Origin: Chlamydiota bacterium
GTDB taxonomy: Bacteria; Chlamydiota; Chlamydiia; Chlamydiales; JABDDJ01
Assembly (NCBI GenBank): GCA_013287645.1
Contig: JABDDJ010000003.1
Location: forward strand, 509 to 64,508
Length of the DNA: 64,000 nt
Direction: 5' to 3'
Each line of letters opens with the position of its first letter. Positions within the stretch are counted from its first letter, which is position 1. The translations under genes were made by a program, and so were the position numbers. Under the pieces are notes generated by a model. That model was not told where the DNA came from and did no database searches. It worked only from the letters and a program-made list of their open reading frames with translations. Below are positions 3,796 to 39,378 of this stretch, in pieces.

Positions 3796-4374
3796 ATGAG
3801 CAACAAAGATCAACTTTTCGAAATAGCCAACAGGCAACAGGGCTTTTTTATCACGAGGCAGGCAGAGGCCTGTGGTTTTTCGCGCTCAAACTTTCATTTA
3901 AAAATTCAATCGGGCGAATGGATTAAAGAGAGGAGAGGCATTTATCGTCTAGCCCACTATCCCATAACTGAAAGACCTGAGCTTGTTCTTTGGATTCTTT
4001 GGAGTTGTAACCGCAAAGGGGAACCTCAAGGTATTTGGTCACACGACACTGCTCTGGATATTCATGAGCTTAGTGATGTAATGCCTTCTAAAATGCATAT
4101 GTCTGTCCCTTCAAACTTTAGAAGAAGAACAGACATCCCTCGAGTGCTTAACCTACACTATATCGATATCCCCGAATCTGATACTGAAACACGGCAAGGC
4201 TATCGGGTAACAAAAACCCTTAGAACACTTATTGACGTTATTAATGAGGGTAAAATAGCCCCGAATCAAATTGCCCAAGCTCTTAAAGAAGCTCTTCAAC
4301 GAGGTCTTATTTCGAGAAGAGAAGTGGATTCAGAACCGAAACTGACAAAAATAAAGGAATCGAATGAAATTTAA
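3796..4374 (+). CDS. abiEi: AbiEi-family antitoxin / transcriptional regulator (type IV TA system)
   Basis: The N-terminus FEIANRQQGFFITRQAEACGFSRSNFHLKIQSGEWIKERRGIYRL matches the AbiEi winged-helix pattern (..G.vt...a...g.s...l..l...G.l.r..rGiY). Its stop overlaps the start of the downstream AbiEii-like ORF by 11 nt. Confidence 0.7.
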   Translation: MSNKDQLFEIANRQQGFFITRQAEACGFSRSNFHLKIQSGEWIKERRGIYRLAHYPITERPELVLWILWSCNRKGEPQGIWSHDTALDIHELSDVMPSKMHMSVPSNFRRRTDIPRVLNLHYIDIPESDTETRQGYRVTKTLRTLIDVINEGKIAPNQIAQALKEALQRGLISRREVDSEPKLTKIKESNEI

Positions 4375-5987
4375 GACAGCTACAGATTTTCGTAAGAGCT
4401 TGGAAACGAGAATTCAGGGTATTGCGGCCAAAACAGGTCAAGATTTGCAAAGCCTTAGAAGAAAAGTTGCTTTTGATCGATTGTTAGCAAGGATTTTTTC
4501 AGATAACAAGTCTAGCTTCTATTTAAAAGGCGGTTATGCAATGGAGTTGAGGGTGGCTGAAGCTCGTGCTACGAAAGACATTGATCTTACATGTATTCAA
4601 AGAGCGACTAATGAAAGTGAGCTTTGGAATGAAATCATTTTGGATGAGCTTCAGGAATTAGCAAGCCGCAATTTGAATGATTGGTAAAGCTCAATTAGAT
4701 TTAGATAATGCTCCTTATGGAGGAAGCCGATATCCAGTTTCCGCACTGATTGACGGTAAGCTCTTTGTTCGTTTTCAATTAGATGTAGGTGCCGATGTTG
4801 TCGTGGATGAAATAGAGCAAATTAAGGGCATTGATTGGTTAGAATTTTGTGGAGTAAAAGCCCCCATAATTCCGGCAATATCGATAGAACAACAACTATC
4901 AGAAAAGCTTCATGCTTACTCTATGCCTCGTGGCGATAGAATAAATTCTAGGGCAAAAGATCTTGTTGATATGGTGTTGTTGCTTAATATGAGAAAAATA
5001 GAAAAAGAGGAGTTTCAGAAAGTACTGGAGAAGGTATTCAAAGCTCGAAATACTCATCCACTTCCTAAATTTTTAGATCCACCTCCTTCGGAGTGGGAGA
5101 ATCAATTTAAAAAGATGGCCGCAGAATGTGGTATTACCCAAGACATGAGATTGAGTTTTGAAAAAATGTCCTTTTTTTACAGTCCAATTACACAGGAAGA
5201 ATGGCAAAACGCGAAACTAATTCTTGATGAATATGGCAGTCTAATTGCTCCCCATACGGTCATTCTAGCCTTCGATGAAAACGAATCTTATGGCACTGCA
5301 GTTCTTATCAACTACAAGAACAAAAAAGTTTTATTAACCGCTACCCATGTCGCTCGACAATTGAAAAAGGCTAAAAGAATTCGTCTTATTTCTCATTTTG
5401 ATGATAGACGCAGAGAATATCCTACCCGTGATCCGCGAGATTTTGAAGTTAAAGAATGGGATTTAAGCTTTGCTGATGAAATGCTTCAAGATGTATTGGA
5501 TTCAGTCCCCAAGGACTTAGCCGTTATTGAACCTTCTCCTCAAATTATTAATATGTTAGAAAATTATAAACAATTTTTTCTATTTACTGAACCTTTAAGT
5601 ATAACATCGAAAGATGCATTAGTTTTATTTGGAGGAATAGGGTCTGAGAAAACAGGTAATACATTTAATGGTAGGGTTTATTCGCTTGCTGTAGTTATGT
5701 CAAATTATGAAAATAAAATTGACAGTGATTACATTGTTTGTAATGTGAGCACTGAAACATTCGGAATAAAAAATCTTGGAGAAAAAATCATCCCAAATTT
5801 CCAAGGCTCAAGTGGTGGTGGCGTTTGGAAGATAGTCAATCAGAAACCTCAGTTGGTTGGTATAGCGATAGCCCAGGATTTGACAGACTATAAAACTGTC
5901 AACAAAGAAGGTCTGTTGTATTTTCATGGATCACAATCTATTTCAATGATGTTGAAATCTTTGGATGATGAATCAGAAAACATATAA
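4364..5987 (+). pseudogene. abiEii: AbiEii/AbiGii-family nucleotidyltransferase toxin, split by a frameshift at about 4677-4687 and fused to a C-terminal trypsin-like serine protease domain
   Basis: ORF 4364..4687 carries the family N-terminus (RKVAFDRLLARIF...FYLKGGYAMELRV..ARATKDIDL). ORF 4677..5987, in another frame, continues the family (GGSRYPVSALIDGKLFVRFQLDVGADV...SEKLHAY). It then adds about 260 aa with H-D-S order: LLTATHV (His codon 5346-5348), KDLAVIE (Asp 5514-5516), QGSSGGGVW (Ser 5811-5813). Confidence 0.6.
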
Positions 5988-6294
5988 AATCACTCCATGA
6001 TTAATAAATAATACAATTTATTCATGAAATAGTATGTGCATGTACTAATTATCTATAATAGAAAATAAAGTAAAAGTTATTACTTCAACAATTTTTTATA
6101 TATAAAAGCTATTTTTAAACTAGAAAACAAATTTATTTTGTTGATTTCTATCCATATATATTTGTATATTAACTACATGAACAAATTCTTGATGCAAAAC
6201 TAGTATATATTTTCGTTTCCTTCGCGGCCTTTCCGCGTATAATAGCGGCCGCTAATCTAGGGGGTGCAAGAAGACAACAGAAGTATTTTGTGTA

Positions 6295-6650
6295 TTGCAC
6301 ACTGCTGACTGGCATCTTGGCAAAATCCTTCACGATCAAGCCCGCGACGAGGAACACAACCACTTTCTGAATTTTCTACTACAAACAGTCAAGGACAAGA
6401 AGATAGATACTATCATCATCGTCGGGGATATCTTCGACTCGCCGCATCCCACTCACATAGCCCAACGACTCTACTATGACTTCCTCGCAGAGGTCAATCG
6501 CTCCACAAACTGTTCGGTCGTCATTACCTTGGGCAACCACGATTCACCGGTCAACCTGGAAGCTCCTAAAGACGTTTAAAAGAGATCAATACCCACGTCG
6601 TTGGCGATGTTCCGGAAAACCTTGACGAGGCATGAGGCTCAAAAACATCA
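6295..6650 (+). pseudogene. sbcD: Truncated and frameshifted sbcD (Mre11-type nuclease) N-terminal remnant
   Basis: TTG start, then HTADWHLGK, IIIVGDIFDS and LGNHDSP, which are calcineurin-like phosphoesterase motifs I-III of SbcD. A stop at 6579 is followed in another frame by EINTHVVGDVPENLDEA. No further homolog-like sequence follows; a full-length SbcD would be about 400 aa. Confidence 0.65.
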
Positions 6651-6971
6651 CGGAAGGGAATAAAATCTGTAATCAAAAATGGAAATTTGACTTGATGATT
6701 TTCTTTTGATCTGTACGATTCATATGTACACCAATGTTTGTTGACTGAGGCCGATCTCCTGGCAGCTTGCCTGGATTTCGGTCTCAAATTTTTCTCTCAT
6801 TTTTAACACTAGTGTCAGATTAAGTCTAGACTATTACACTTGAAGATGTTATGCGTCGGCTCGTGTTACATAATTCTTTGAAACTCCACGAACTTCTGCC
6901 AGATCAATGGGTTGATGATCGCAAAAAAAGTGCTGCCTAATTTCTGCAATACCCCTAAATTTGACGCTTAC

Positions 6972-7002
6972 CCTGGAATACGCGCGAAGCGCGCATTCCA
7001 GG
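6972..7002. repeat. GC-rich imperfect palindrome / hairpin (possible bidirectional terminator or IS-associated element)
   Basis: cctggaatacgcgc gaa gcgcgcattccagg gives 8+5 bp of stem with one mismatch and a GAA loop. It lies between a transposase-like 3' remnant (ends 6940, + strand) and the stop of ORF 7047..7319 (- strand). Confidence 0.35.
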
Positions 7003-7046
7003 ACCTTGATGCACCTAGACGTGAATAGTTACTTTGATTTTAGATT

Positions 7047-7319
7047 TTAAAATGAATTATATTCCGTTTGCAGTGTTTGTTGCCTTACTTTGTCTACACG
7101 AATTGTTGTCTCAAGTTTAGCTACGGCATCTTTTAGTTCAGCGGTAGCTTTATCATAACCAGGGTTATTAGGAAAGCTCTTTGCCACCTCCAAATGTCTA
7201 CGAAGCTTAACTTTTGCTTGGCTTAATTCAGATTCTAAAGATGTTAGTTTATTGTCAAGATCCTTTAGTTCACGTTCTACTTGACCCTTGTGTGAATGAG
7301 CTGTATATACATAAGTCAT
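7047..7319 (-). CDS. Small coiled-coil hypothetical protein
   Basis: 90-aa ORF with heptad-like charged sequence (ERELKDLDNKLTSLESELSQAKVKLRR...). An AGGAGA-like RBS (tcaaaggagaattttt) precedes the ATG on the minus strand. Confidence 0.4.
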   Translation of the reverse strand: MTYVYTAHSHKGQVERELKDLDNKLTSLESELSQAKVKLRRHLEVAKSFPNNPGYDKATAELKDAVAKLETTIRVDKVRQQTLQTEYNSF

Positions 7320-7483
7320 AAAAATTCTCCTTTGAGTATATGTTTTTTTGAAGTGCTCCCCAAGTGTTGGACAGAAAAAAAGAGGGAATAAGGTTATAAA
7401 CCACGCTTTTTCTTGTTTTTCAAAGGCATCCCAGGAATTCCTGAGAGTATCCTCGAATTTTCTTTGTTTTCCCCGCCAACAAT

Positions 7484-8130
7484 TTATTCACCCACCGTTT
7501 TAATTTCAATAATTTTATATTTGCCCTCATGATACACCTCAGGTGGTGTCTTGTACCCAATAGACTGATGTGGACGCTCTTTATTATAGAATCTTATGTA
7601 TCTTGAAATGCCCTCAAATGTCTCTTGAACGCTCTCATAACTTTTTGGATACACTTCTTCATATTTTAAAGATCGCCATAATCTTTCAATAAACACATTG
7701 TCTAATGCTCTTCCTTTTCCATCCCAGCTTATGCTTGTTCCAGAGCCCATCAAAGCGCTTGTAAACCTGTCTACAGTAAACTGTGATCCTTGATCTGAGT
7801 TAAAGATTTCTGGTCTACCCGCTACTAATGCCCTCTCCAATACTTGTAGGCAAAATATTTCATCAAGTGTCGTTGAAAGCTCCCAGGCCAGTACACAGCG
7901 ACTGTACCAGTCCATTATCCCAACGAGATACACAAACCCCCTTTTCATTGGTATATAAGTGATATCTGTACTCCACACATGGTTGCAATGATCTATCGTC
8001 ATACCTCGGAGAAGGAGGGGTATTTAACTCCTCTTTCCTTTATCTTGCTGAGGTTTGGTTTTGGATAGATTGCCGATATCCCCATAATCTGCATTAGTCT
8101 CCTGGCGCGTTTTTCATTAATAACCCATCC
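7484..8130 (-). mobile_element. IS3-family transposase OrfB (rve integrase core) remnant, N-terminally degraded
   Basis: VWSTDITYIPMKRGFVYLVGIMDWYSRCVLAWELS, FNSDQGSQFT and FYNKERPHQSIGYKTPPEVY are DDE/rve motifs. Upstream minus-strand sequence reads RRLMQIMGISAIYPKPNLSK but is interrupted by stops. No orfA is present. Confidence 0.75.
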
Positions 8131-8150
8131 TTCCCTTTTAAGAGGAAAAA

Positions 8151-8762
8151 CAATCTCATGGCGAGATTGAAACAGAGCACCCTGGATACCTTTTATCCCA
8201 AGATACGTACTATGTAGGAACGATTAAAGGCGTGGGGAGGATTTATCAACAAACGGTCATCGACACATATACCAAGGTGGCATTCACTAAACTGTATGGC
8301 AGAAAGAATGTGCTCATAGCAGCGGACATTCTTAATGATCAAGTCATACCCTGGTTTGAAAACCAAGATATCCGAGTTCTTAGAGTACTCACAGACAGAG
8401 GGACAGAATACTGTGGAGCTAGAGAAGATCATGCTTATCAACTCTACCTAGCGCTCGAAGATATCGATCACAGCAAAACAAAAGCAAAGCATCCGCAAAC
8501 TAACGAAATATGCGAGCGATTTCATCTAACGGTGAAGACTGAGTTTTATCAAGTGGCGTTTAGGAAGAAAGTGTATAAAGGCCTTGACGAATTACAGGAG
8601 GATTTGAATAGTTGGATTCGTGAGTATAATGAGTCTAGGACGCATTCAGGAAAGTACTGTTTTGGCAGAACGCGTTTACAAACGTTCTTGGAGGCAAAAC
8701 ATCTAGCACAGGAAAAAGTGCTAGATAAACAGTATCTGACAGGTTCTAACGTTGTCGGGTAG
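8151..8762 (+). mobile_element. IS481-like transposase C-terminal fragment abutting the IS3 remnant
   Basis: The in-frame stretch ETEHPGYLLSQDTYYVGTIKGVGRIYQQTVIDTYTKV, LTDRGTEYCG, HPQTNEICERFH and YNESRTHSG matches the IS481-type rve core. The N-terminal HTH portion is missing. Confidence 0.7.
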
Positions 8763-9226
8763 GTAGTGTGCGTCAGATCAAGTTATGTTTAGGACATCTA
8801 AGTTGGACCTAACAAGGGGGCAAGGTCAGGAATTCTCTTTACGAGCCTAAAAGGTTGCCCATTTTCGCAACCATAGATCTGTATATCTGTGCGTATGTAT
8901 GTACAGACGATACAGCAAATCACAAAAATGTACTTTCAAATATGAACCTTCACTAATTCGCGATAGCCCGTTAAGTAAGATTTGGATACGATAGCTTTTA
9001 TTCGACGGATGAGAAATCATTGTATCAAACTATTACCTAACGGAATAGTGCGAATTCTAATAAATAATAATTTTATTTTAAAAAAATGTATAAATAAATG
9101 GGGCTAATGCAGAACCCTCTGCTAGAAATATCAAGCAACCTATTAGTAACAAAATGATAATTAGAGGAGCAAGCCAAATTTTTTTTCTTGCCCTCATAAA
9201 CGCACAAAGCTCAAAGATAGTCTCTA

Positions 9227-10411
9227 TCATAAATTACTCCGATTGCTTTTTTTCACAATTTCGAGAACGTCATTCGCAATTTTTCTTCCAAGGATCTCGT
9301 TACCTAGTTCATCAATATGGAAATAATCGATATAAAATGGGCGTTGGTATCCGGAGAGAATTTCTGAGAGATCGTGAAAATCGTTTTCTTTGATATTGGA
9401 GATAAGTTTTCTGAGTTGTACGAAGATTGATTTTCCATGAAAATATGATTCGCCTACAGATGCGATATGGCTTTCATAAGGCGTATAATCGTCTTTTGTG
9501 AGAATAATTGGTTGCCAATAGAATAGGGTCTTAAATCCGTAAAACTTGGAAATAGACCGAATTATGTTTAGATTTTGTAGGTATATTTGATAAATATCCG
9601 TTGCTATTTTTTGTTGTTGATTTTCATCTAAATTTTTGGTTTCGTTTGGTTCATTTTTTCTTAAAATCTTGGAAATATAGTAATATACAGGGGAGTAAGC
9701 CGCGTAAGAGGTCGCTATCCTTTGTAAAACACTCAATTTTTCTTGGTGAAATGCTGTTTTCCTGTCTAATTCCCCCCAAGATACCCCGGCTTGACCTACT
9801 TGACCGGCTCGTAGCGCACTAAATATTTCATTAAGGCCATCGTAAAAGATAACTAAATCTGGGATATTGTTGTTTTGAATTTCCATCATAAAACGGATAA
9901 GTTCTTGAGTACTGACGTAACCAACCTCACCAAAATTTATAATTTCTGCATCTACTCCATATTCATTAAATAAAATTTTGTTGATTATCGAAGGGATTGT
10001 GAAATCGTCGCGCGCACCCCATCCCCACATAGTACTTCCACCAAAGACGAATATTTTAAATTTTTGAGTTTTTCCTATCCTATTTGGACTCCAAGTTTTC
10101 CTAATCGATCGTTCATCAATATTAAGGTACTTACCTTTATACGCGTGTGTGCTCCAATATACATAAGGTTTCCATGAAATATTTGGTATTGCTTCAAGAC
10201 ACTCTTTAACATAACCCTCATACCAATTCGTTTCTAAATAACTTTCTGGGGTAGGTGCACCCTCCAGTAGAGAAAGAGGCTCTTCGTTCTGACTCTCAAA
10301 AATGTGAAAATGTTTAAATGGATATAATACAGCCTCGGTTATGAGGAGCATTCCGATTGCAATGGCTAATGAGTTCCATCCGTGTTGTAAATTTAAGAAA
10401 ATATTCTTCAA
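9227..10411 (-). CDS. Membrane-anchored SGNH/GDSL-type hydrolase (esterase/acyl-hydrolase)
   Basis: N-terminal TM segment (WNSLAIAIGMLLITEAVLY). Block I FVFGGSTMWG, block III FYDGLNE and block V DYFHIDELGNE fit the SGNH pattern. Confidence 0.55.
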   Translation of the reverse strand: MKNIFLNLQHGWNSLAIAIGMLLITEAVLYPFKHFHIFESQNEEPLSLLEGAPTPESYLETNWYEGYVKECLEAIPNISWKPYVYWSTHAYKGKYLNIDERSIRKTWSPNRIGKTQKFKIFVFGGSTMWGWGARDDFTIPSIINKILFNEYGVDAEIINFGEVGYVSTQELIRFMMEIQNNNIPDLVIFYDGLNEIFSALRAGQVGQAGVSWGELDRKTAFHQEKLSVLQRIATSYAAYSPVYYYISKILRKNEPNETKNLDENQQQKIATDIYQIYLQNLNIIRSISKFYGFKTLFYWQPIILTKDDYTPYESHIASVGESYFHGKSIFVQLRKLISNIKENDFHDLSEILSGYQRPFYIDYFHIDELGNEILGRKIANDVLEIVKKSNRSNL

Positions 10412-10469
10412 ATGGCACCTATTTTCAAATTCGTATTTATCAGCTAATTATGAAAAATGTTTTTACTTT

Positions 10470-11939
10470 TTAATAAAACACAAACAGTATTAATTTAATT
10501 GCGAATTTGTCATGAATAATGTTCGGGTCTACATTTTCAATGTCTTTTCTACCGTCTCTATAAATAATTTCTTCAACAGGTGTAATAGACAAATCCTTTA
10601 GTTTATCGCCCGTAAGTGTCACGGCCATGTTCAAAGGAAATGGATAAAGTTGAATCCATGGTAGTCCTTGTTTAGTGAAGTCTTCTGCAATTGGAAAATG
10701 GCAATAGTCTGGCGGGATTTTAGATCTATTTACGATGACAACAGTTGCATCTGCCGGAATATTGAGCGATTCTTCATTGCATAGAAAATTGCTAAATCCG
10801 CCGTCTTTTTTGGTAAGTTCCAATATTCTTACGGCTCCTGGCTGATAGTCTAGACTGAATGTGTCTTTTAATGATTTGATTAACTCAACTGAATTTTGAG
10901 ATAGTCTTTCGTAAACTTCCACATTTTGCATATCTGGCAATCGACGGACAACACTAAGTTGTGAATCAGGTTGAAGATTTATCTCCTTAAATAAAAGACC
11001 GTTTGGATAAGTTCGAGTTTGCTGGTTTTCAGCATTGAACGTAATTTGTGGGTAGTTGACATCAAGATGTTGACATTTGTTTGCAAACTCATCCATTTCC
11101 TGTTTTGTAACTAATCCTCTTATCGAAATACTTACGCGTTTTCCTTTCGCAGATCCCGGTGTTAAATCGCCTAATCTATCTATAGGTGCTATCGGACAAT
11201 GCGGGGGTAATGTATTTGCTCCTGGGTATTCAGGTGCTATATTTGGTCCAAGATAGATTGCAGGCTCGGTATATACAGTACATGCTATTTGGGTATCAAA
11301 TATTGGGAAAATAAAGCGATCTCCTGTCTCTTCATCTTGAAGTATTGTTCCTGTAAATGTTCCTTTTGCCATTTCCCAATCAACCAATGTTAAATCTTGG
11401 ACAAGAATATACTCTGGAATAGGAAGTGTATGTTCTTTTAAAAATTTGTATTGAGTGACAAATTGATCTTGATGAAACCTATTAGCATCAAAATTTATTA
11501 TCAAGCTGAGGTCTTTGGATAGTCCGTAAAAGTGGACTTTCCAATGGTTTTCTATCATGCGTTTCACATGTTGAGCATGATTTTCAAATACTGCCATCCC
11601 CTTCGTATCTGCATAGATTGGTTGATTATTTTCATCATAACCGATTGGATCTGTCATTATTGTGCATATCGGTGTTACTTCGTTAATAGGGAAATCAAGC
11701 TCAGCTGTTACAATGCCATGCTGCATATTTTCTTGAATGTCTATCATGAAATTTTTTGCCATTTCATGTTTTTCGGGAGTCATGTAAAAAAACAAACGGT
11801 TTTTTCCAAACTGGGCGGTTGCTATCTCAGAACTCCCTAATCGTCCAGGTACGGGCAAAGTTTCGGCGGAAGATAAAGCATAATTAAATATAAACAGAAA
11901 TAACACAAATGTTGTTATGTTTTTCATTTTAATCACCAT
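10470..11939 (-). CDS. Secreted protein of unknown family, paralog 1 of 3
   Basis: Signal-like N-terminus. Blocks shared with ORFs 11949..13418 and 35849..37261: LPVPGRLG, FFYMTPEK, QDLTLVDWEMAKGTFTGT..QD..GDRF, GSAKGKRVSISIRGLV, KKDGGFSNF, QGLPWIQLY, ITPVEE. Confidence 0.7.
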   Translation of the reverse strand: MVIKMKNITTFVLFLFIFNYALSSAETLPVPGRLGSSEIATAQFGKNRLFFYMTPEKHEMAKNFMIDIQENMQHGIVTAELDFPINEVTPICTIMTDPIGYDENNQPIYADTKGMAVFENHAQHVKRMIENHWKVHFYGLSKDLSLIINFDANRFHQDQFVTQYKFLKEHTLPIPEYILVQDLTLVDWEMAKGTFTGTILQDEETGDRFIFPIFDTQIACTVYTEPAIYLGPNIAPEYPGANTLPPHCPIAPIDRLGDLTPGSAKGKRVSISIRGLVTKQEMDEFANKCQHLDVNYPQITFNAENQQTRTYPNGLLFKEINLQPDSQLSVVRRLPDMQNVEVYERLSQNSVELIKSLKDTFSLDYQPGAVRILELTKKDGGFSNFLCNEESLNIPADATVVIVNRSKIPPDYCHFPIAEDFTKQGLPWIQLYPFPLNMAVTLTGDKLKDLSITPVEEIIYRDGRKDIENVDPNIIHDKFAIKLILFVFY

Positions 11940-11948
11940 AAAAAATAG

Positions 11949-13418
11949 TTAATTTATAACAAATAAAATCAATTCGCAAACTAATTTCTCTGTAAGAACG
12001 GAATCGTATGCATTTTCTTCATCGATTTGCGCATTTCTGAAGAATAACTCTTCTAGTGGTGTCATTGAAAGTTGTCTGAAAACTCTTCCAGATACGATCA
12101 TTGCTTGATGAGGGGAGAAATTAAAAAGTTGTATCCACGGTAACCCTTGATCGGTCCATATTTTCGAAATCGTATAGTATTTATAATTTTCTGGAAGCTT
12201 AGATTTATTCAATATGACGACTGTTGAATTTTCCGGAATCTCTAAATCTAACTTAGAAAATCGACTGAAGCCTCCGTCTCTTTTAATTAGATGGAATATT
12301 TTGACGTTAGACCCTCGCACACCTAAATTTTTTTTTAGATAGGAAATTGTGGTTGAAAAATCTTGAGGAGACGACTCTAAAATTGTTAGATTTTCTTGAT
12401 CAGGCAATTTGTGTTGAAGGGAATTATTCTCGTTGGCTAATTTTTGGGAGATATCTTGTATTTTAATTGTGTCAGGATATTCAAAAAGTCTTAAATTATC
12501 CTTCTCAATTGTTATTGTGGGGCGGTTGATTGGAAGAAAGGTCGCATTCTTCGCTGCTAAAATGATCTCTTCTTCTTGTACAACTCCTCGAGTGCTAGTG
12601 CTGATTCTTTTGCCTTTCCAAGATCCCACTGTTGTACTTCCATCAAAGTCTGTAGGAGCCACGGAACTATGGTATGGAAAACTAATGCGTCCTGGATATA
12701 CGATTACAGAGTTTTTGTCTTTAGAAACGCAAGGTTCTGTGTAAACTGTGCCAACGATTTCTCCAGGAAAAACAGCCATTATGAAACGGTCGCCATCAGA
12801 ACCATCTTGAACCAATGTCCCTGCAAAAGTTCCTTTTGCCATTTGCCAATCCATAAGAGTTAAATCTTGAAATAAATAATACGTCTTAACTGGCGGAGGA
12901 AGCGAGCTTAGGTATTGATATTGGTCGGAGAACGAATCACGATGAATTTTTAGCGCATCGTAGTTAGGATTAAAGTTAAGATGACCTGATAATCCCTCCA
13001 TTTTTGTACCTAATACGCTATACACAATTTCAGCAACTTTACTTCTATATGTTGAGAACAAGTTGTGACCTTCAGAATCAGGATAGATGTTGTTACCATC
13101 CTTATCTTCTCCAATAGGGTCGGGATATTTTTCATTCCAAGCAAGAATTTCGATAACAGGACAGGGTGCTGAAGCATTTCCAAATGAAAGGATAGTTTTT
13201 TCATTGATGTCCCGGATTAGTTGTCGAGCTAACATGTCTTTCTCAGGTGTCATGTAAAAAAAAATGTAAGTTTTTCCAAAACGGGTGAAATAGACACTAT
13301 TGTTGCCAATACGCCCAGGGAGAGGTGTGTGTTGTTCCAAGATGGAGTAGGATTGTAATTTGTGGGGGGCACTTACAATCAACAATAAGAAAATCGTGGT
13401 AAAGATACGTGATATCAA
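11949..13418 (-). CDS. Secreted protein of unknown family, paralog 2 of 3
   Basis: Same block order: PLPGRIG, FFYMTPEK, QDLTLMDWQMAKGTFAGT, GSWKGKRISTSTRGVV, KRDGGFSRF, QGLPWIQLF, MTPLEE. It lies 9 nt upstream of paralog 1 on the same strand. Confidence 0.7.
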   Translation of the reverse strand: MISRIFTTIFLLLIVSAPHKLQSYSILEQHTPLPGRIGNNSVYFTRFGKTYIFFYMTPEKDMLARQLIRDINEKTILSFGNASAPCPVIEILAWNEKYPDPIGEDKDGNNIYPDSEGHNLFSTYRSKVAEIVYSVLGTKMEGLSGHLNFNPNYDALKIHRDSFSDQYQYLSSLPPPVKTYYLFQDLTLMDWQMAKGTFAGTLVQDGSDGDRFIMAVFPGEIVGTVYTEPCVSKDKNSVIVYPGRISFPYHSSVAPTDFDGSTTVGSWKGKRISTSTRGVVQEEEIILAAKNATFLPINRPTITIEKDNLRLFEYPDTIKIQDISQKLANENNSLQHKLPDQENLTILESSPQDFSTTISYLKKNLGVRGSNVKIFHLIKRDGGFSRFSKLDLEIPENSTVVILNKSKLPENYKYYTISKIWTDQGLPWIQLFNFSPHQAMIVSGRVFRQLSMTPLEELFFRNAQIDEENAYDSVLTEKLVCELILFVIN

Positions 13419-13741
13419 GATGGTTCCTCCCTAAAGTTTAGTGTGACATTTCAAGTCCTGAAGCTATTTCAACCCGTTTGTTTCTCATCAGAGGTCTAAT
13501 GGAAAAACTGGATTCCAAAAAAACCGTAGCAAAAAATTGAAATTAGTGGTAGCTTTTTTTTAGTTTTAACCTTGGCTTGGTGCTTAATGAGCCTTTAAAT
13601 TTGACTGTTGTGTTCATGGGTCATCGATTGGCCTTTTTAACAACGGTTGACTGGAAAAATAAATTTTGCATTCGAAAACTATTAAGGGAAAACATGTTAG
13701 ATAACGATCGATACTTTTCAGCAGGTTAGGAGTTTTATTTT

Positions 13742-15817
13742 ATGGAAGCAGTAGCAGTGATTGGGCTTGCTGGTTCATTTCCAGCTTCTTCGTCGATTGA
13801 AGAGTTTTGGGCCAATTTATGTAAAGGAAAGGAGCTTATTTCTTTTTTAGACGTTCAAGAATTGTTACAGGAGGGGTTGGACCCGAAAATTCTAAACAAT
13901 CCTCAATATGTTAGAGCTAAAGCTATTTTGCCAGAAGCAGATTGTTTTGATGCTTCATTTTTTGGATACAGTGCCCGTGAAGCTGCATACATCGATCCGC
14001 AGCAAAGAGTCCTTCTTGAGTGTGCTTGGAGTGCTTTGGAACATTCTGGTTATGATCCTGAGCAGTACAAGGGCTTGATAGGAGTGTTTGCTGGGTGCAG
14101 TTTTAGCAGCTATTTCTGCTACAATTTGTTGCCACATTTGAATGGTGCTGAGAATTTGATGCAAGACGAAATGTTAATGGTTATGGGGACTGAAAAGGAT
14201 TTTCTAGCGACGCGCATTTCTTATAAACTCAATCTGACAGGACCGAGTAAGTGCATTCAGACTGCTTGTTCGTCTTCTTTGGTTGCAGTACACGATGCTT
14301 GTCAAAGTCTGCTCAATTATGAGTGTGATATAGCCTTAGCAGGCGGGGTCTCGATTACTTCCCCCCTCCGACATGGATATCTATACACAAAAGAAGGTAT
14401 TAATTCACCGGATGGACATTGTCGAGCTTTCGACCATCGTGCGGCAGGTACTGTCATGGGTAATGGTACAGGGATTGTGGTTTTAAAGAGATTAAATGAA
14501 GCTTTGGCTGATCGGGACACAATTCATGCTTTAATTCGCGGGTCTGCCATAAATAACGATGGGGCAAGGAAAGTTGGATATACTGCACCTAGTATTGAAG
14601 GACAAGCACAAGTTATTATTGCTGCTCAAGCAGCCGCAGAGGCGACTCCTGAAGACATTACTTATATAGAAGCTCATGGGACAGGAACAATTCTTGGGGA
14701 TCCAGTTGAAATCAATGCGCTGACTCGTGCGTTTCGAGAAAAAACGAATGCAAAACAGTTTTGTAAAATCGGTTCTGTGAAAACGAACATTGGTCATTTG
14801 GATGCTGCAGCCGGGATTGCAGGCTTGATTAAAACCATTCTTACTGTACAGCATCGCGTTGTTCCACCCTCGTTGCACTTTGAAAAACCTAATGAGTCCA
14901 TCGCATTTTCTGAATCTCCATTTATCGTAAATGATAAATTAACATCCATGGATAGCAAGAATGGAGTAAATTTGGCCGGTGTAAGCTCGTTTGGTATCGG
15001 AGGTACTAATGCTCATGTCATTGTTGAGAATGCTCCTCAACATAAGGTACACCCTTCAAAACGGCATTTTCATCTTTTTCCATTTTCTGGAACAAATGTT
15101 TTTTCGCTTAGAAAGGTTCTCCAGCGGTTTCTCGAGCATTTTGCTTTGCAGAATTTTTCATTAGCTGACGTTGCTTACACCTTGCAAGTAGGTAGAAAAA
15201 GATTAGAATACCGCGTCTGTTTTATCAGTGATAATAAGGAAACACTGATAAATCAAATCAATCAATACCTTACCCATGGTCTTACGAATTTAGAACTCAT
15301 AGACGTTTCTGTTCAAGGTGACGAGCTCGACAAACTCAGAAAAATGGGAAGAGATTGGTTGAGCGGCTTGGATTGTTTGTGGAAGTCTTATTATTCTGAT
15401 GAGAGCAGAAGCCGTATACCACTCCCCACCTATCCATTTGAAAGGGTACGCCATTGGATACTTCCAAAATCATGTGCTTCAGTAGACAGTAAAGAAGCTC
15501 AGGAATCAAAAAGTGATTTATTAATTAATTTAGGCTCTGCCTCAAAATCAATACAATCCGAGGTCGTTGATATTTGGAAAAAAAGTTTGAATGTTGCACA
15601 TATCGATATTCAGGATGATTTTTTTGCTTTAGGTGGTGACTCTCTTTTAGCATTGGAAATTCTGGATGAGCTGAGAAAAAGGTTTGCGGTGGATTTAACA
15701 CTAAGTCAAATACTAGAAAAAAGAACTGTAGAACAATTAGCAAATGTCGTTGAAGAAATTATAATAAAAAATATTTCTTCATTGTCAGAAGAAGAAGCTA
15801 CTTCACTCATAAATTAA
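13742..15817 (+). CDS. Stand-alone PKS module: ketosynthase, short linker, carrier protein (no AT)
   Basis: KS Cys-His-His: IQTACSSSLV (Cys codon 14267-14269), EAHGTGT, NIGHLDAAAG. The post-linker motif PLPTYPFERVRHW (~15417-15455) comes only about 130 aa after the KS, too short for an AT domain. Carrier motif FFALGGDSLLALE (Ser codon 15641-15643). Confidence 0.85.
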   Translation: MEAVAVIGLAGSFPASSSIEEFWANLCKGKELISFLDVQELLQEGLDPKILNNPQYVRAKAILPEADCFDASFFGYSAREAAYIDPQQRVLLECAWSALEHSGYDPEQYKGLIGVFAGCSFSSYFCYNLLPHLNGAENLMQDEMLMVMGTEKDFLATRISYKLNLTGPSKCIQTACSSSLVAVHDACQSLLNYECDIALAGGVSITSPLRHGYLYTKEGINSPDGHCRAFDHRAAGTVMGNGTGIVVLKRLNEALADRDTIHALIRGSAINNDGARKVGYTAPSIEGQAQVIIAAQAAAEATPEDITYIEAHGTGTILGDPVEINALTRAFREKTNAKQFCKIGSVKTNIGHLDAAAGIAGLIKTILTVQHRVVPPSLHFEKPNESIAFSESPFIVNDKLTSMDSKNGVNLAGVSSFGIGGTNAHVIVENAPQHKVHPSKRHFHLFPFSGTNVFSLRKVLQRFLEHFALQNFSLADVAYTLQVGRKRLEYRVCFISDNKETLINQINQYLTHGLTNLELIDVSVQGDELDKLRKMGRDWLSGLDCLWKSYYSDESRSRIPLPTYPFERVRHWILPKSCASVDSKEAQESKSDLLINLGSASKSIQSEVVDIWKKSLNVAHIDIQDDFFALGGDSLLALEILDELRKRFAVDLTLSQILEKRTVEQLANVVEEIIIKNISSLSEEEATSLIN

Positions 15818-15834
15818 ACATTTTTAGGTAATGT

Positions 15835-18800
15835 ATGTCACAATTAGACAATTTGACCGAATCCCATAAAAAATTATTCGAACAGATGCTTTCTAGGAAG
15901 ATAGAACAAAAAAATAGAATGTTCCAACAGGATGTTCCATTTGTCACTGTCTTACCTAAGCAAAAATATTATGCAGCATCTACTATTCAAAAGCGAATGT
16001 TTTACTTACAAGAATTGGACAAGCATTCAACGGCATACAATTTACCCGTTGCATTTTCCATAGGTGGTGATCTTTGTGTCCAAAGCCTGAGAAATGCATT
16101 TCATAACCTTTTAAAAAGGCATGAAAGTTTAAGAACAGGGATCTATTTTCACGAAGGCGAAGTTGTCCAGGCTGTTTACGATGATGTCAATTTCGAGATA
16201 GAATTTGTTCAAGATTCTAACGTAGATATCAAAAATACATTTGAGAGTTTTATCAGGCCATTCGATTTGGATAAACCTCCATTAATCAGAGTAAAATTAA
16301 TCAAAATAAGTGATCAAAACCATTTATTGTTTTTAGACATGCATCATGCAATTTCTGATGGGAAGTCAATGAGTCTTTTACTAAAAGAACTTGCAAGTCT
16401 TTACGAAGGTCACACTTTGAACGTTTTACCTATTCAGTATAAAGAGTATGCTGACTGGAATGCTCGTTTTCTAAATACACCTATATCTCGCATAAATTAC
16501 GAATATTGGAAGTCGCAGTTTTCAGAGGAAATTCCTCAAATTGCTTTTCCGAGTGATATTATGAGCCAAAATGCTCTCGCATATCAGGGATCTCAACATT
16601 ATTTTTCTATGGATGTGTCCTTGTCAGAACAAATAAAGGCTGCCGCAGTTAAGGAAGGGGTTACTTTACATACCTTTTTGTTGGGAATCTATTATGTGTT
16701 GCTGGGAAAATATACTCAGCAGGAAGATATTATAGTGGGTTCCTCGGGTGAAGGGAGACCTTTTCCCGAGTTTCAACAAGTCATTGGTGCGTTTGTTACG
16801 GCTTTACCACTAAGATGTAAACCTAATGGAATAAAATCATTTAAGAACTTTTTGGAAGAAGTTCAGTCATGCATTGTAAGGGCTTCTGACCATCAATATT
16901 TTTCGTTAGAGGAATTAGTCCAATTTCTTAAAAAAGAACAGTATATTCAAGACAATAATCTTTATGATGTATGGTTTGAATTGCACTATGATCGATCGAT
17001 TCTCAAGAAATTTTCAAATTTAACTATAGAACCTTTACAAGTCACTCATCACGCTTCAAAATTTAAGCTATCGTTAGAAATCGTTGACCGAGAACAATCG
17101 CTAAATTGTCATTTTGAATATAGTTCTGCGATCTTCCAAGAAAGGACAATCGTTCGTATGGCAAAACAATTCGAACGAATAGCAGCACAAGTTGTAGGTA
17201 CTCCTAACATATTGATTGGAGATCTTGATTTTATTCCAGATGAAGAGAAGGATTATCTTGTTAGGGAATTGAATATTCCGGCCGTTCCTTTTGCAGCGCC
17301 AACACTGTCATTTTGTGAAATTTTCAATCAGCAAGTTAGTTTGCGCGTTGATGCAGTTGCTGCCACATGTAATGGTGTACATTTAACATATAAAGAACTA
17401 GACAACGCCAGTACGCATTTAGCTAATCACTTTGCTGCCCTTCGTCGGCCAGAAGAACAGTATATTACCTTCCTTATGGAAAGAGGGTTACCATTATTGA
17501 TCGGACTAATAGCGACCTTGAAAGCACAAATGATTTATACCCCAATAGATCCGGGAGCACCGGTCGATCGGATTTTGAATCTTATTGATGATGCTGCTCC
17601 TGTTTTAGTAATCACTGACAATAGTGCTGAGTGGATCGAAAAATTTTTGCCGGGAAAAAATAATGTTCGAAATTTTTACGAGATATTTGGATCTCCTGCT
17701 TCATCTGCCCCCCAAGAACCGCTATTTTCTTCTGATCATCTTGCATATATGATCTTCACTTCGGGTTCCACAGGGAAACCAAAAGGAGCAATGGTAGAAC
17801 ATAAAGGCATGATGAACCATCTTTTTTGTAAGATCCATGAGCTGGAATTGAACGAAAATGATGTTGTTGCTCAAACGTCTTCACAAACGTTTGACGTGTC
17901 TGTTTTTCAATTGCTGATTGCCTTGTTAGTAGGAGCTAAGGTTACAATTTTTTCTCATGAAAAGGCTTGGGATCCAGAACTTCTTTTGAACGCATTGGAA
18001 GACGAAAAAGTGACGGTTTTCGAAACTGTACCATCTCACATGTACCTGATCATGGAGGAACTTGAACATAGCCTTGTTTTAAACAGTCTTAAAGAGGGTG
18101 AAGCTGATCCATATGATAAATTTTTCAAAGGAAAACCCCTTGCCTTCTGTCATTTTCGTTGGCTGATCCTGAATGGTGAGCCTCTACTTGGACCACTATG
18201 TGAGAGATGGCAACGCATTTACCCTCACGTTCCTATTATTAACGCCTATGGTCCTACAGAATGTTCAGATGATGTCATTCACTATCATGTGCCATTGGCA
18301 TTATCACCACTTCCTCCTCGTATTCCAATCGGGACTGTCATATCGAATATGAAGATTTATTTTCTCGACAATTACATGTCTTTGGTGACTTTAGGTGGTT
18401 ATGGAGAAGTTTATATTGAAGGAATTGGTGTCGGGCGTGGGTATATCAATGATCCAGAAAAAACAGCAAATGCATTTCGTCCTTCTCCGTTTTCTTCTAA
18501 AAATGAACCTGGCAAGCGAGCTTATTATACTGGAGATCTTGCTCGTTATCTGCCAAGTGGGGACATCGATTTTCTGGGAAGAAGGGACAGTCAGGTTAAA
18601 ATTAGAGGGCAACGCATTGAGTTAGGAGAGATAGAAGTAACTCTAAATCGATCCGATATGGTTTTACAAGGGGTGGTTGAAGTTAAAAAAGATAATCAGA
18701 ATGAGCTTCAGCTGGTTGCTTATATTGTTAAAAAAGATATAAATATTCCTGACAATGAATGTATCGAACGGCTCAATCAGTATTTAATCCAGTATTTATC

Positions 18801-21800
18801 AAGGCATATGGTTCCTAACCTCTTTGTAGTACTTCCTGAAATGCCTCTTCTGTCAAATGGGAAGGTAAATAGGAAAGCGCTGCCTCCGCCGAATTTTGTT
18901 GTATCTGAAAATGAATATCTTCCGCCCCGAACTGCTACAGAGATTGAATTGGCAACGATTTGGTGTGATCTTTTAAAACTTTCAAAAATTAGCCGTTCTG
19001 ATCATTTTTTTCGTTTGGGGGGGCATTCTTTGCTTGCAACACAACTGAGTGCGCGGGTTTCGAGGACTTTTGACATCAAATTCCCGCTTAAAAACCTGTT
19101 TTCTTATCCGACTCTTGAATCTCTAGCGAATGAAATAGATAAATTAAAGCAAAAAAAACAAGCAGTGGTTTCAAAAGAACAATTACCCTCGATCGTATCG
19201 GATATTGAAAGCCGTTATGAAGAGTTTCCTCTCACGGATATTCAACAAGCTTATTGGTTAGGAAGAAAAGGGTTGTTTGCTTTAGGCAATGTCAGTGTTC
19301 ACATGTATTGCGAATATGAATGCGACAATCTGGATATCAATCGCTTAGAACAATCATGGAACCAAATGATTCAACGCCATGAAGCGTTGAGACTAGTTTT
19401 TACTCCGGGTGGAAATCAAAGGATTTTAAAAGAGGTTCCTTATTATTCAATCCATGTTGAAGATTTTTCAAATCGAACCGAAAAAGAGTGTGAAACTGAG
19501 TTCAATAGATTACGACAACTGCACTCTCATGAAGTGTTTTCATCCGAAACATGGCCGCTTTTTTTGATCAAAGCCGTCAAGCTTAAAGACAACAAAACTC
19601 GATTATATTTAAGTTTTGATGCGTTGCTTCTAGACGGGTGGAGTGTAGATATTATCTTCGGCGAGTGGGTACAGCTATATAAAAATGAACAAACAAAATT
19701 CGAGCTTCTTGAGCTTTCGTTTAGGGATTATATTCTTTCTTTGAATAAATGCCGCATGCACCCTTTATTTGTAGAACATCGGGACTATTGGTTAAGCAGA
19801 TTAGAAAATTTCCCGAATAAACCAGAATTACCTCTATTGAAATCTTCACAAGAGATTAAAAATCAAAAATTTGATCGAGTTAGCAGCATTTTGTCCAAAC
19901 AACAATGGCAGTTGATTCAAGATCAGCTATTAGCTAAACATTTTTCTCCGACAGGTTTTCTTGCGGCTATTTTTGCTGAAGTGCTTAGTCGATATGCTAA
20001 TAGCAGCCATTTTGCAATCAATTTGACTTTGTTCGATAGAATTCCTTTGCATTCTCAGATCAATCAAATTGCTGGGGATTTCACTTCTTTAAATTTACTA
20101 GAAATTGATTATAGAAAAAAGGGGTCAACGTTTGCAGATCGAGCTAAAAGAGTGCAAGAACAGCTATGGCAAGATTTAGATCATCATTTCTTTAGTGGCG
20201 TAGAATTTTCTCGAGAACTTGCAAAAAAACGATCCAAGCAAGGGGATGAGCCATTATTTCCAGTCGTATTTACATCGGTTTTAGGACTAGATAACAAATT
20301 CAATGATGATGTTCTAGAGATGTTGGGTAAAGAGGTTTTTAGCATTACTCAAACCCCTCAAGTTTGGTTAGACTATAAGGCGTATGAGGTAGATGGTAAT
20401 TTGATTTTGGAGTGGGATTATGTTGAGGAATTGTTTGCTCCTGGCTTTATTCAAGAGATGCATGAAGCCTATGTTGCTATTCTTAAAAAACTGGTGAATC
20501 AACCATCCGCATGGAACGTGCAAGAATTTCAAGATTTGATTTCTTCAAAACAAGAAGAGCGATTTTCAAACTACAACAATACCCATGATATAGCTCCTCC
20601 GGCTTTGCTACACGGGTTATTTTACGATCAAGTTAAACTCAATCCAAAACAGTTAGCAATCATTGGACCTACGGATTCTTATACCTATGAAGAACTATAC
20701 AGATCTTCAAATCAGTTAGGACATTTTCTTAGATTCAAGGGTGCAAAGCCAAATCAGTTGATTGCTGTAATTATGGAAAAGGGGAGTAGGCAGGTTGTAG
20801 GTTGCTTGGGGATTCTAAATTCAGGTGCCGCATATCTTCCTATAGACCTGTCTCTCCCAACTAAGCGGATTGAACAGATTTTGTCTATAGGTGACGTTTC
20901 TTTAATTGTGACAGAACAAAATGCGGTCGATAAGTTGAAATCAATTGGATACGTTAATCAACTACCAGCCGATCGTATTATCTCTTTAGATGATCAAAAC
21001 GCTCAATATAGGCACTATTCAGATCAGAAGCTCGATAACATTCAAAAAACTGACGACTTGGCTTACGTCATTTTTACTTCGGGTTCCACAGGAATTCCGA
21101 AAGGGGTCATGATAGAGCATGGTGCGGTATCTAATACTATTTTAGATTTAAATAAACGATATCAAATTCGATCATCAGATCGGGTATTAGCTTTATCAAG
21201 TCTGACGTTTGATTTGTCAGTTTACGATATTTTTGGAATGTTAGCTGCAGGAGGTTCGATTGTTTTTCCTGAGTCTTCTTTAATAAAGGACCCGAATCAT
21301 TGGTTAGAACTTCTCACTACTCATGAGGTTACTGTTTGGAATACTGTTCCTATGTTTATGCAGATGTTAACGACTGTGCAACAAAAAACGACAGAACGGG
21401 ATATTAATATAAGGCTTCGCTTGATATTACTTAGCGGAGACTGGATTCCAATTGACCTCCCTAACCAAATTATTCAATTTTTTGGAAAAAAGGATTGTCA
21501 AATCGTTTCTCTAGGCGGTGCAACAGAAGCTTCAATTTGGTCAATTTATTATGACATCAAGCGCGACGAATACTTTAAAAAAAGCATTCCATATGGACGA
21601 CCTTTGACGAATCAACAGTTTTATGTTCTTGGTGAAGGTCTTGAACATTGTCCAGAATGGGTTGTTGGAGATTTATATATCGGAGGTATTGGCCTTGCAA
21701 GAGGGTATTGGTCGGATCCAGAAAAAACCGCTACCAGTTTTACTATTCATCCAAGATTTGGTCGCATATATAAAACAGGAGATTTAGGGAGGCTATTACC

Positions 21801-38442: not shown

Positions 38443-39378
38443 TCATATTTTATGTGAAATATTTCGAATTAATGGAAATAAAATTGATACCTGTGTTTTA
38501 AATGGTTTAATCAAGCATTTGAGCAACTCGGTTAAATGAGGAAAACAATTAAAATTGTCGTGTAAAGTCTGCATTAAGCACAGCAAATCACCCAAAGAAT
38601 CTCTAGAATATTCATTTAGATAATTTTTAATTTCTTTAGTTTCTGATAAATAAATAAATAATTGAATTTCATCGATCAATTCTTCTTTGAATTTTACATC
38701 TAATTGATCGAAGTGATAAAAACAGAGCTCTTCTTTGATAAAATCCATTGGGTTGTCCAATTCACGGTGGAATTCTAGAACATCAGCATCGTGAATGGCT
38801 TGCTGCTCAGGTGAAACAAAATTCCTGTTTTCGGGATCTTTTTGAGATATTGCATTAAAGTAGAGATCTACCTGTTTTTTTTCTAGGTTTTGTTGTGATA
38901 AGTAATTTTTTACCCAAAGCGCGCTATCAAAATCCCAAAAATCTTCTCCTTCATCTTGTCTAGCAATATCATGAGCTGCTCCTGCTAACGCTAGGAATAA
39001 ACGATGATATGTCCACTCCTTATTTGCTAGTTCATGCAATTCTATGAAAAGCTGTGTCCATATTGCCGTACGTGTCGCATGTAATACCCCATGAATATTT
39101 CGCTGCGAAATTTCTTTTCTGCTTATCCTGTCTAAATAATCATGATATGAATGAATTCCATAACCCCAAAACGGATTATCATGAGTTTTTTGTTGACCTG
39201 TAGATATATCTACGTAGGAAGGGTTGCTGGGAAAATATTGCCGATAGTGAGGTAGTACATCACTTTCTAGAATAGAAGAAAGTTCGACTGGAAAATTGTC
39301 TTGATCACATAATTTTGCATTAAGTTCTATGGGAACATTCCCTAACCTAATGCAGCACAAAATAATTGCTATTTTCAT
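38443..39378 (-). CDS. Hypothetical protein with possible HD-type metal-binding motifs
   Basis: HGVLHATRTAIW, GAAHDIARQDEGED and AIHDADVLEF are spaced like H...HD...D. There is no other recognisable family signature. Its start overlaps the upstream stop by 4 nt. Confidence 0.35.
   Translation of the reverse strand: MKIAIILCCIRLGNVPIELNAKLCDQDNFPVELSSILESDVLPHYRQYFPSNPSYVDISTGQQKTHDNPFWGYGIHSYHDYLDRISRKEISQRNIHGVLHATRTAIWTQLFIELHELANKEWTYHRLFLALAGAAHDIARQDEGEDFWDFDSALWVKNYLSQQNLEKKQVDLYFNAISQKDPENRNFVSPEQQAIHDADVLEFHRELDNPMDFIKEELCFYHFDQLDVKFKEELIDEIQLFIYLSETKEIKNYLNEYSRDSLGDLLCLMQTLHDNFNCFPHLTELLKCLIKPFKTQVSILFPLIRNISHKI

Follow-up and report, generated by a model that had tools for sequence, protein, structure and literature searches.

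Three paralogous genes at a chlamydial NRPS-PKS locus

The 64,000-nucleotide stretch of the Chlamydiota bacterium contig JABDDJ010000003.1 analysed here (the window) carries a cluster of nonribosomal peptide synthetase (NRPS) and polyketide synthase (PKS) genes, and around this cluster lie three paralogous genes, which we refer to as parA, parB and parC. The subject of this work is the family that they represent, its predicted fold, its conserved residues and the role that it may have in the pathway. The three genes and the intergenic region beside parB are as follows:

10470..11939, minus strand: parA, 489 aa, clade A, intact H156-x-D158/H247/R268-x-S270, signal-like N-terminus (SSA|E)
11949..13418, minus strand: parB, 489 aa, clade B, TTG start, intact H-D-H-R-S, signal-like N-terminus
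13419..13741: divergent intergenic region between parB and a KS-CP gene, 323 bp
35849..37261, minus strand: parC, 470 aa, clade C, intact motif, signal-like N-terminus (CIA|N)

parB is the first gene of a minus-strand operon that continues after 9 nt into parA and then into a gene of 394 aa, and it is divergent from the KS-CP gene that starts at 13742 on the plus strand. An earlier note made from the DNA letters had described a tandem pair of 489-aa reading frames 9 nt apart, a 323-bp region shared with the first KS gene and a third copy heading a minus-strand biosynthetic operon, and all of these coordinates were reproduced. The intergenic region presumably holds the promoters of both divergent operons; when it was scanned for promoters, with the sigma-70 consensus, and for terminators, the matches were not enriched over shuffles and no promoter was assigned.

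The public gene call of parB (P0003) has 434 aa and starts from an internal ATG inside the conserved FFYMTPEK block. The 489-aa frame is the better call, since 6 nt 5′ of its TTG (13418) lies a Shine-Dalgarno sequence, GGGAGGA, and two conserved blocks, PGRIG and FFY, are encoded upstream of the called ATG; the longer start also restores the signal-like segment. parC is likewise preceded by a strong Shine-Dalgarno sequence (GGAAGGAG).

The three window copies share 37-39% identity in pairwise comparison over nearly their full length, and BLASTP gave E = 3e-110 for parA against parB and 3e-105 for parA against parC. At such E values and identities the paralogy is real and chance is excluded, as the earlier note had proposed for a three-member family, and each of the conserved blocks that it quoted is present in the three-way alignment. 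parB scored E 2e-190 against the hidden Markov model (HMM) of the family. Conservation was assessed family-wide, synonymous sites among the three copies being saturated at 37-39% protein identity.

Predicted fold and conserved residues

The structure of parA was predicted with AlphaFold2 from an alignment of 46 sequences, and its N-terminal domain was also modelled separately. The whole-protein model (predicted local distance difference test, pLDDT, 91.8; predicted template modelling score, pTM, 0.90) consists of an N-terminal helix, corresponding to the signal-like segment, and two beta-rich domains. In a Foldseek search of the PDB the top three matches were all entries of human OGFOD1 (E 4e-7 to 1e-6, probability 1.00), aligned over about 510 columns but with template modelling (TM) scores of 0.24-0.27 and a root-mean-square deviation of about 17 Å. 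Bicupins came next, with low TM-scores of 0.10-0.14. Matches at the level of single domains included AlkBH2/3/5/7, PolD, P3H1 and a Burkholderia 2-oxoglutarate (2OG) oxygenase (6n1f), at probabilities of 0.9-0.98. The N-domain alone (pLDDT 90.5) matched AlkB, PHD2, FTO and PolD at probabilities of 0.98-0.99, with a best E of 1e-3, weaker than hoped, and TM-scores of 0.3-0.45. In a viral structure library, those matches at probabilities of 0.95-1.00 that bore informative names were 2OG oxygenases or AlkB-like proteins, and several other high-probability matches were unnamed or plant-virus polyproteins. Unlike the single-domain 2OG oxygenases, the family has a C-terminal domain that is obligatory, and long inserts, namely a helix after HxD and a 20-residue loop ahead of strand VIII. 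As judged from these models, the assignment of the family to the double-stranded beta-helix fold class is well supported.

The near-invariant residues of the family include H156-x-D158, H247 and R268-x-S270 (parA numbering). In the parA model H156 lies in a short strand after strand 138-148, with six further strands following; the fifth of these begins with H247, and R268 is in second place in the sixth, strand 267-278. Canonical 2OG oxygenases carry HxD on strand II, the distal histidine on strand VII and the 2OG-binding arginine on strand VIII, where Arg-x-Ser at the strand start is typical of 2OG binding. From the strand order of the model and this established knowledge of the superfamily, H156-x-D158, H247 and R268 map to strands II, VII and VIII. 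The earlier note had recognised no family or catalytic signature; that statement is superseded by the prediction of a two-domain jelly-roll closest to OGFOD1 with HxD...H...RxS on the canonical strands.

The four residues H, D, H and R are all kept in 59/79 full-length members, the three window copies included. H156 is lost in 16/79, and among these R268 is also lost in 15/16 and H247 in 13/16, the residues that replace the lost motif positions being unconstrained. Among further members of a cytoplasmic subfamily described below, H-D-H-R-S is intact in 31/31, which brings the combined count to 90/110 full-length members. Conservation together with co-loss is, to the extent that alignments can tell, what is usually seen where active enzymes have pseudo-enzyme relatives. 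Even the motif-less copies keep about a dozen invariant residues, among them D187, W188, D207, D254, K265-G-K267, Y311, K377, G381 and N404, which may form a ligand pocket common to all copies or an interface between subunits.

Copies with and without the motif also occur side by side in other genomes (loci are designated L001 to L022). In L015 (two pairs, 8250-11356 and 17746-20670) and L017 (8645-11455) an intact copy stands in tandem with a copy that lacks H156, D158, H247 and R268, and in L018 (2869-8795) intact and motif-less long forms lie one gene apart, with an S12 peptidase gene between them. Such pairs suggest partnerships of a catalytic protein with a pseudo-enzyme; in the window pair both copies are intact.

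Distribution, genomic setting and neighbouring genes

The family is rare. A word-indexed search of 5.8 billion clusters returned 46 relatives, and in an exhaustive HMM scan of 1.84 billion representatives at 50% identity 66 belonged to the family. The earlier note had named widespread homologs in genomes free of PKS/NRPS genes, belonging to a characterised family, as the contrary outcome; what was found is a set of 66 in 1.84 billion, and the family is uncharacterised. Named sources of the exported branch are Chlamydiota metagenome-assembled genomes (MAGs), one MAG labelled Verrucomicrobia and Candidatus Megaera venefica (Rickettsiales), and a separate branch comes from Streptomyces, Glycomyces, Saccharothrix, Nocardia and Spirosoma. 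All named members are annotated "hypothetical protein". NCBIfam gave no match to the family, nor did the Pfam families 2OG-FeII_Oxy_4 and Ofd1_CTDD, which were checked for membership of the OGFOD1/Tpa1/Ofd1 group, and the N-terminal extensions of the long forms (about 745 aa) contain no Pfam domain. Neither of the classical cupin motifs, GX5HXHX3-4EX6G and GX5PXGX2HX3N, shows up at the positions that are invariant or nearly so in the alignments of 46 and 79 sequences. A description of the family was not found in the literature on chlamydial clusters, where secondary metabolism appears as antiSMASH counts only (PMC9666466), with a mention of Simkania-like NRPS genes in the MAG of L002 (PMC9666466; PMC13229535).

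Export was called by hydropathy and visual inspection, a heuristic by which 56/79 members have a charged n-region and, close to the N-terminus, a hydrophobic core, in most cases together with an AXA-like site. This set covers all apparently full-length members of the exported branch as well as the copies of Ca. Megaera and L008, and the members outside it are mostly truncated gene calls or of the cytoplasmic type. In each of the three window proteins a positively charged start leads into a hydrophobic stretch, in line with the secreted character proposed in the earlier note; the sites of parA and parC are cleavage-like with small residues, and that of parB is less canonical. Other window proteins that look exported or membrane-anchored are the PAD, the 394-aa protein and the S12 peptidase listed below. 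Together these N-termini suggest an extracytoplasmic branch of product maturation.

Linkage to the cluster is conserved. Thirteen loci of the Chlamydiota type had usable flanks (the window, L001-L005 and L014-L020), and in all 13 the family members stand beside homologs of window-cluster genes, with an NRPS and/or KS-CP gene within 10 kb in 11/13. The other two, L017 and L018, have accessory genes only within reach, namely MbtH, the 391-aa unknown, PALP, phosphopantetheinyl transferase (PPTase), S12 peptidase, DUF6790, thioesterase and the long aminotransferase. The link to the cluster suggested in the earlier note is thereby supported beyond the window. Each locus holds 1-4 family copies. A neighbour-joining tree assigns parA, parB and parC to three separate deep clades, and every one of these also holds orthologs of other genomes, so the three copies are ancient, separately retained lineages and not local duplicates. 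The order B then A recurs in tandem in L014 and L019, and in L001 a B-type and an A-type copy occur on opposite strands with about 4.7 kb between them.

One of these loci, L005 (JAFEGK010000002.1), is from the Verrucomicrobia-labelled MAG; its cluster is nevertheless of the chlamydial type, and identity to the 2611-aa NRPS of the window is 38%. Its gene order of C-type copy, PAD and aminotransferase matches that of the Chlamydiota-type loci, which could stem from horizontal transfer within the Planctomycetes-Verrucomicrobia-Chlamydiae group or from an error of binning or labelling.

The separate branch was seen in five loci, from Glycomyces, Saccharothrix, Streptomyces CNQ-509, Spirosoma and a JGI contig. 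Its members, taken as cytoplasmic, have a non-hydrophobic N-terminal extension of 85-115 aa in place of the signal peptide, and in 5/5 loci they belong to a conserved cassette of three genes, the other two encoding an amino-acid 2,3-aminomutase of the KamA/EpmB type and an ATP-grasp ligase that is Ddl-like. The Streptomyces CNQ-509 genome provides one such cytoplasmic homolog, WP_047016217.1. Three of the five loci have no NRPS gene nearby, and in Glycomyces and Streptomyces CNQ-509 the cassette is followed by a stand-alone T-A protein and a C-domain protein. The cassettes of L013 and L022 (Spirosoma) are accompanied by EctB-like, EctC-like, glycosyltransferase and PseudoU_synth_2 genes. That of Spirosoma lies among conjugation genes (relaxase, TraG, TrwC) and may be part of a mobile element.

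A KamA-type aminomutase gene adjoins the family gene in L002, L003, L020, L006, L007, L009, L013, L021 and L022. In the Chlamydiota loci among these (L002, L003 and L020) and in Ca. Megaera the aminomutase stands beside exported members, which form the sister clade of the cytoplasmic branch. Other loci have SbnA-like and OCD enzymes and EctB/EctC-like genes. The recurring companions of the family are thus enzymes for the formation of diamino or beta-amino acids: aminomutases of the beta-lysine type, an SbnA-like pyridoxal-phosphate (PLP) enzyme with or without an OCD enzyme, as for diaminopropionate (Dap), and an EctB-like aminotransferase, as for diaminobutyrate (DABA).

The remaining features of the window are:

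3796-5987 and 7484-8762: AbiEi/AbiEii toxin-antitoxin pair and two rve integrase fragments, just past the parB-parA operon
9227..10411, minus strand: 394-aa gene, 58 nt 3′ of parA, with one N-terminal transmembrane segment at 14-32
13742..30063, plus strand: core biosynthetic operon, from Pfam annotation and peptidase architecture
26673-27848, plus strand: 391-aa protein directly 3′ of the MbtH-like gene, a conserved orphan of the cluster type
27845-29305, plus strand: S12 peptidase of ClbP architecture, with a signal peptide, a beta-lactamase-fold S12 domain and three C-terminal transmembrane segments
30050..34554, minus strand: rest of the parC operon, with an ATP-grasp/argininosuccinate-lyase fusion (PRK02186, above cutoff), an SbnA-like PLP enzyme and a PPTase
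34541..35839, minus strand: PAD_porph (agmatine-deiminase-like) gene, here PAD, Pfam E 7e-59, 9 nt 3′ of parC
38443-40925, minus strand: two genes of 311 and 516 aa with no Pfam match, beside an Acetyltransf_8 gene
42732-44249: M4 peptidase
45422-48607, plus strand: 1061-aa protein with STAND/AAA NTPase and UCH-type ubiquitin hydrolase parts
49240-63965: second block of cluster-type genes, with DUF6790, a 727-aa class-III aminotransferase fusion, a carbamoyltransferase, CarA, CarB and a second NRPS
58647-63965, minus strand: the second NRPS, within that block

The core operon encodes a KS-CP protein, the 2611-aa NRPS (C-A-T-C-A-T), a second KS-CP protein, MbtH, the 391-aa unknown, the S12 peptidase and a thioesterase. 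The parC operon is tightly packed: parC, PAD, PPTase, PALP and the ATP-grasp/lyase fusion follow one another with gaps of at most 12 nt and overlaps of up to 14 nt. The PAD protein has an N-terminal hydrophobic stretch that is signal-like, and PAD is a conserved partner of the C-type copies; in both L004 and L005 a C-type copy is likewise followed by PAD. It is unusual for an exported guanidino-modifying enzyme to lie within an NRPS cluster. Arginine-type chemistry is represented in the window by the PRK02186 fusion, the agmatine-deiminase-like PAD and the genes for carbamoyl phosphate and carbamoyl transfer.

The S12 peptidase aligned with ClbP at E 3e-13 over the whole peptidase domain and has homologs in L001, L017 and L018. 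Identity with ClbP was considered and not adopted: the architecture fits, yet the best sequence match is not ClbP. The peptidase hints at a prodrug or a periplasmic activation step. The 391-aa protein has 59-60% identity to the equivalent gene in L016 and L017 and no match in Pfam or NCBIfam. The 311- and 516-aa genes have homologs at the equivalent position in L014 and are probably further conserved orphans of the cluster. Homologs of the DUF6790 and aminotransferase genes lie inside the cluster in L004, L005, L017 and L019, so the window cluster appears to be split into at least two blocks. The 394-aa gene gave only GDSL/SGNH Pfam matches below the cutoff (E 0.056), and as no homolog was found in L001-L009 or L013-L022 it is window-specific. 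The toxin-antitoxin pair and integrase fragments make the cluster border near 3796-8762 look like mobile-element debris, and the 1061-aa protein looks like a eukaryote-directed effector.

Proposed role, alternatives and relation to known systems

From the fold, the motif and the genomic setting we infer metal and 2OG binding, oxygenase chemistry, a class of substrate and a periplasmic site of action. With moderate confidence, we take parA, parB and parC to be oxygenase-like oxidative tailoring enzymes of a rare, unannotated two-domain family, acting in the periplasm of intracellular bacteria. H156, D158 and H247 would bind Fe(II), R268 and S270 would bind the 2OG carboxylate, and an amino-rich substrate would be held by those acidic and basic residues that are invariant in the barrel and the C-terminal domain. 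The proteins would be carried by Sec export to the periplasm in Chlamydiota and other intracellular Gram-negative bacteria, where an exported peptide/polyketide may be oxidised, most simply hydroxylated, at a residue that stems from a basic or a diamino acid, alongside the exported PAD-type deiminase and the peptidase of ClbP architecture. Each paralog lineage could serve its own site or step, B and A may act as a pair, and the motif-less relatives in other genomes may be non-catalytic partners or binders. The earlier note had suggested extracytoplasmic binding, maturation, immunity or export of the metabolite; given the predicted fold and motif, pure binding, immunity or export is less likely than an enzyme.

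A more far-reaching version is put forward only tentatively, as rather doubtful in its full form: that these are Sec-exported Fe(II)/2OG oxygenases which, within the periplasm of obligate intracellular bacteria, finish the nonribosomal peptide/polyketide with 2OG from the host, that the catalytically dead paralogs serve as partner or binding subunits, and that the cytoplasmic cassette of aminomutase, ATP-grasp enzyme and oxygenase is a portable one that makes hydroxylated beta- or diamino-acid building blocks.

Several observations weigh against an oxygenase. The window copies have no Pfam match, and among the 46 members no recurrent Pfam family appears even at E<=10. The sequence/profile search of the PDB returned three sub-threshold matches (best E 0.46), none of them a 2OG oxygenase, and when the N-domain profile was compared by hhalign with E. 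coli AlkB, whose sequence had been confirmed against the PDB, the probability was an uninformative 1%. Viral capsid jelly-rolls are interleaved with the 2OG oxygenases among the N-domain matches at similar scores, and a fold known from models alone cannot tell an enzyme from a plain jelly-roll. The Fisher tests of motif co-loss (p = 1e-7 to 1e-12) are uncorrected for phylogeny and overstate independence, the motif-less copies belonging to only 3-4 deep clades, and since about a dozen residues are invariant in those copies, part of the family function is independent of the motif. Sec export would, to our knowledge, be unusual for a bacterial 2OG oxygenase. The main difficulty is that Fe(II) and 2OG would have to be supplied in the periplasm, which is conceivable for an intracellular bacterium bathed in host metabolites. 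In sum, no sequence-based search placed the family within a known group of 2OG oxygenases, while the structural and motif comparisons, at the level of prediction, did.

The same observations bear on what else the proteins might be. Non-catalytic periplasmic ligand-binding proteins, which would bind, chaperone, sequester (for self-protection) or take up the metabolite through the jelly-roll pocket and use His, Asp and Arg for the ligand or a structural metal, would suit the exported location, a fold that is also common in binding proteins and capsids, the persistence of motif-less copies in tandem with intact ones and the dozen motif-independent residues, which point to a binding function. We nevertheless regard this as unlikely, as HxD...H...RxS lies on the canonical strands, is strict in 90/110 and is lost as a block, as an active site would be; the structures matched at high probability are those of enzymes, and a binding protein has no obvious role in a cassette where cytoplasmic members stand between aminomutase and ATP-grasp genes. 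A metal-dependent enzyme other than an oxygenase (an isomerase, epimerase, decarboxylase, hydrolase or cyclase) that works on the metabolite or a diamino-acid precursor, on a cupin-like scaffold and without 2OG, would need no 2OG in the periplasm, and would agree with the bicupins and cupin-domain proteins among the fold matches and with the lack of a sequence match to any known 2OG family. It is a distinctly improbable explanation, however, in view of the Arg-x-Ser at strand VIII, the best whole-protein and highest-probability matches, which are 2OG oxygenases, and conserved columns that do not include the cupin motifs.

The explanation to which we give the least credit, as very improbable, is that the proteins are directed at the host, as secreted effectors or adhesins, and merely adjoin the cluster on a mobile island. 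Although signal peptides in an intracellular host lineage, the mobile-element debris and toxin-antitoxin pair that flank the cluster, the deubiquitinase-type effector-like gene nearby and the activity of OGFOD1-type enzymes on proteins could all be cited for it, the linkage to cluster genes holds in 13/13 loci from diverse MAGs with micro-synteny kept (B then A; C then PAD), related copies without signal peptides occur in biosynthetic cassettes of free-living actinomycetes and a Spirosoma, and no member lies away from such contexts in any informative locus.

Returning to the proposed oxygenase, OGFOD1/Tpa1/Ofd1 (PDB 4nhy, 4nhx), a group of two-domain Fe(II)/2OG oxygenases of the prolyl-hydroxylase type, is the best whole-protein structural match (E 4e-7, probability 1.00), and the family may share its layout of an N-terminal double-stranded beta-helix with HxD...H and a basic 2OG residue, followed by a second beta-rich domain. 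Sequence similarity between the two is not detectable, however, and the whole-chain TM-score of about 0.25 indicates a different packing of the domains. OGFOD1 is cytosolic and nuclear and hydroxylates a ribosomal protein, whereas the par family is predicted to be exported, or is bound to a cassette, and is tied to secondary metabolism. AlkB, PHD2, FTO and PolD, the last a natural-product tailoring enzyme, resemble the N-domain in fold (probability 0.98-0.99) and have HxD, the distal His and Arg at equal strand positions; they differ in being single-domain proteins, unlike the family with its long inserts and obligatory C-terminal domain, and in TM-scores of only 0.3-0.45.

The NRPS amino-acid hydroxylases VioC, AsnO, SyrP/TauD-type and EctD are alike in the proposed 2OG oxidation of a basic or diamino moiety, and genes for Dap, DABA or beta-lysine formation lie near members of the family. 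These hydroxylases are single-domain, cytoplasmic enzymes of the CAS/TauD or PhyH families, and they gave no sequence match and no top structural match to the par family. In the pyoverdine (PvdM/N/O/P/Q) and colibactin (ClbP) pathways an exported product is finished outside the cytoplasm, and the window cluster resembles them in its peptidase of ClbP layout and its exported PAD; we know of no periplasmic maturation enzyme, however, that is a 2OG oxygenase or has the par fold. Periplasmic action in the window cluster is suggested by putative signal peptides only.

Negamycin contains hydroxy-beta-lysine, and its neg2 locus in Kitasatospora purpeofusca was considered as a further parallel. There a "hypothetical protein" (8073, WP_266272325.1) adjoins a lysine-2,3-aminomutase-like protein (8074), with a PGM1-type ATP-grasp protein (8071) nearby, and the passages and Table S2 rows of the source that we draw on annotate no hydroxylase or dioxygenase (bioRxiv 10.1101/2025.07.31.667836). 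In gene content neg2 resembles the cytoplasmic cassette. The link was set aside: no Kitasatospora protein is among the family matches, and homology of 8073 is unsupported.

On the strength of the models, the par family may be classed as a sequence-orphan, exported, multi-paralog branch of the 2OG-oxygenase/double-stranded beta-helix superfamily. It is a signature accessory family of one widespread chlamydial type of NRPS-PKS cluster, and it gains a testable chemistry, Fe/2OG oxidation, with named candidate residues. Its setting suggests that part of the pathway lies outside the cytoplasm. If the oxygenase assignment is true, a sequence-orphan clade missed by current HMM libraries would be added to the 2OG oxygenase superfamily, and genome-mining tools could then pick out clusters and cassettes in which it occurs. 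Cultivable strains of Streptomyces, Glycomyces, Saccharothrix, Nocardia and Spirosoma carry the cytoplasmic cassette and would, unlike the uncultured chlamydiae, offer a tractable experimental route to the function of the family.

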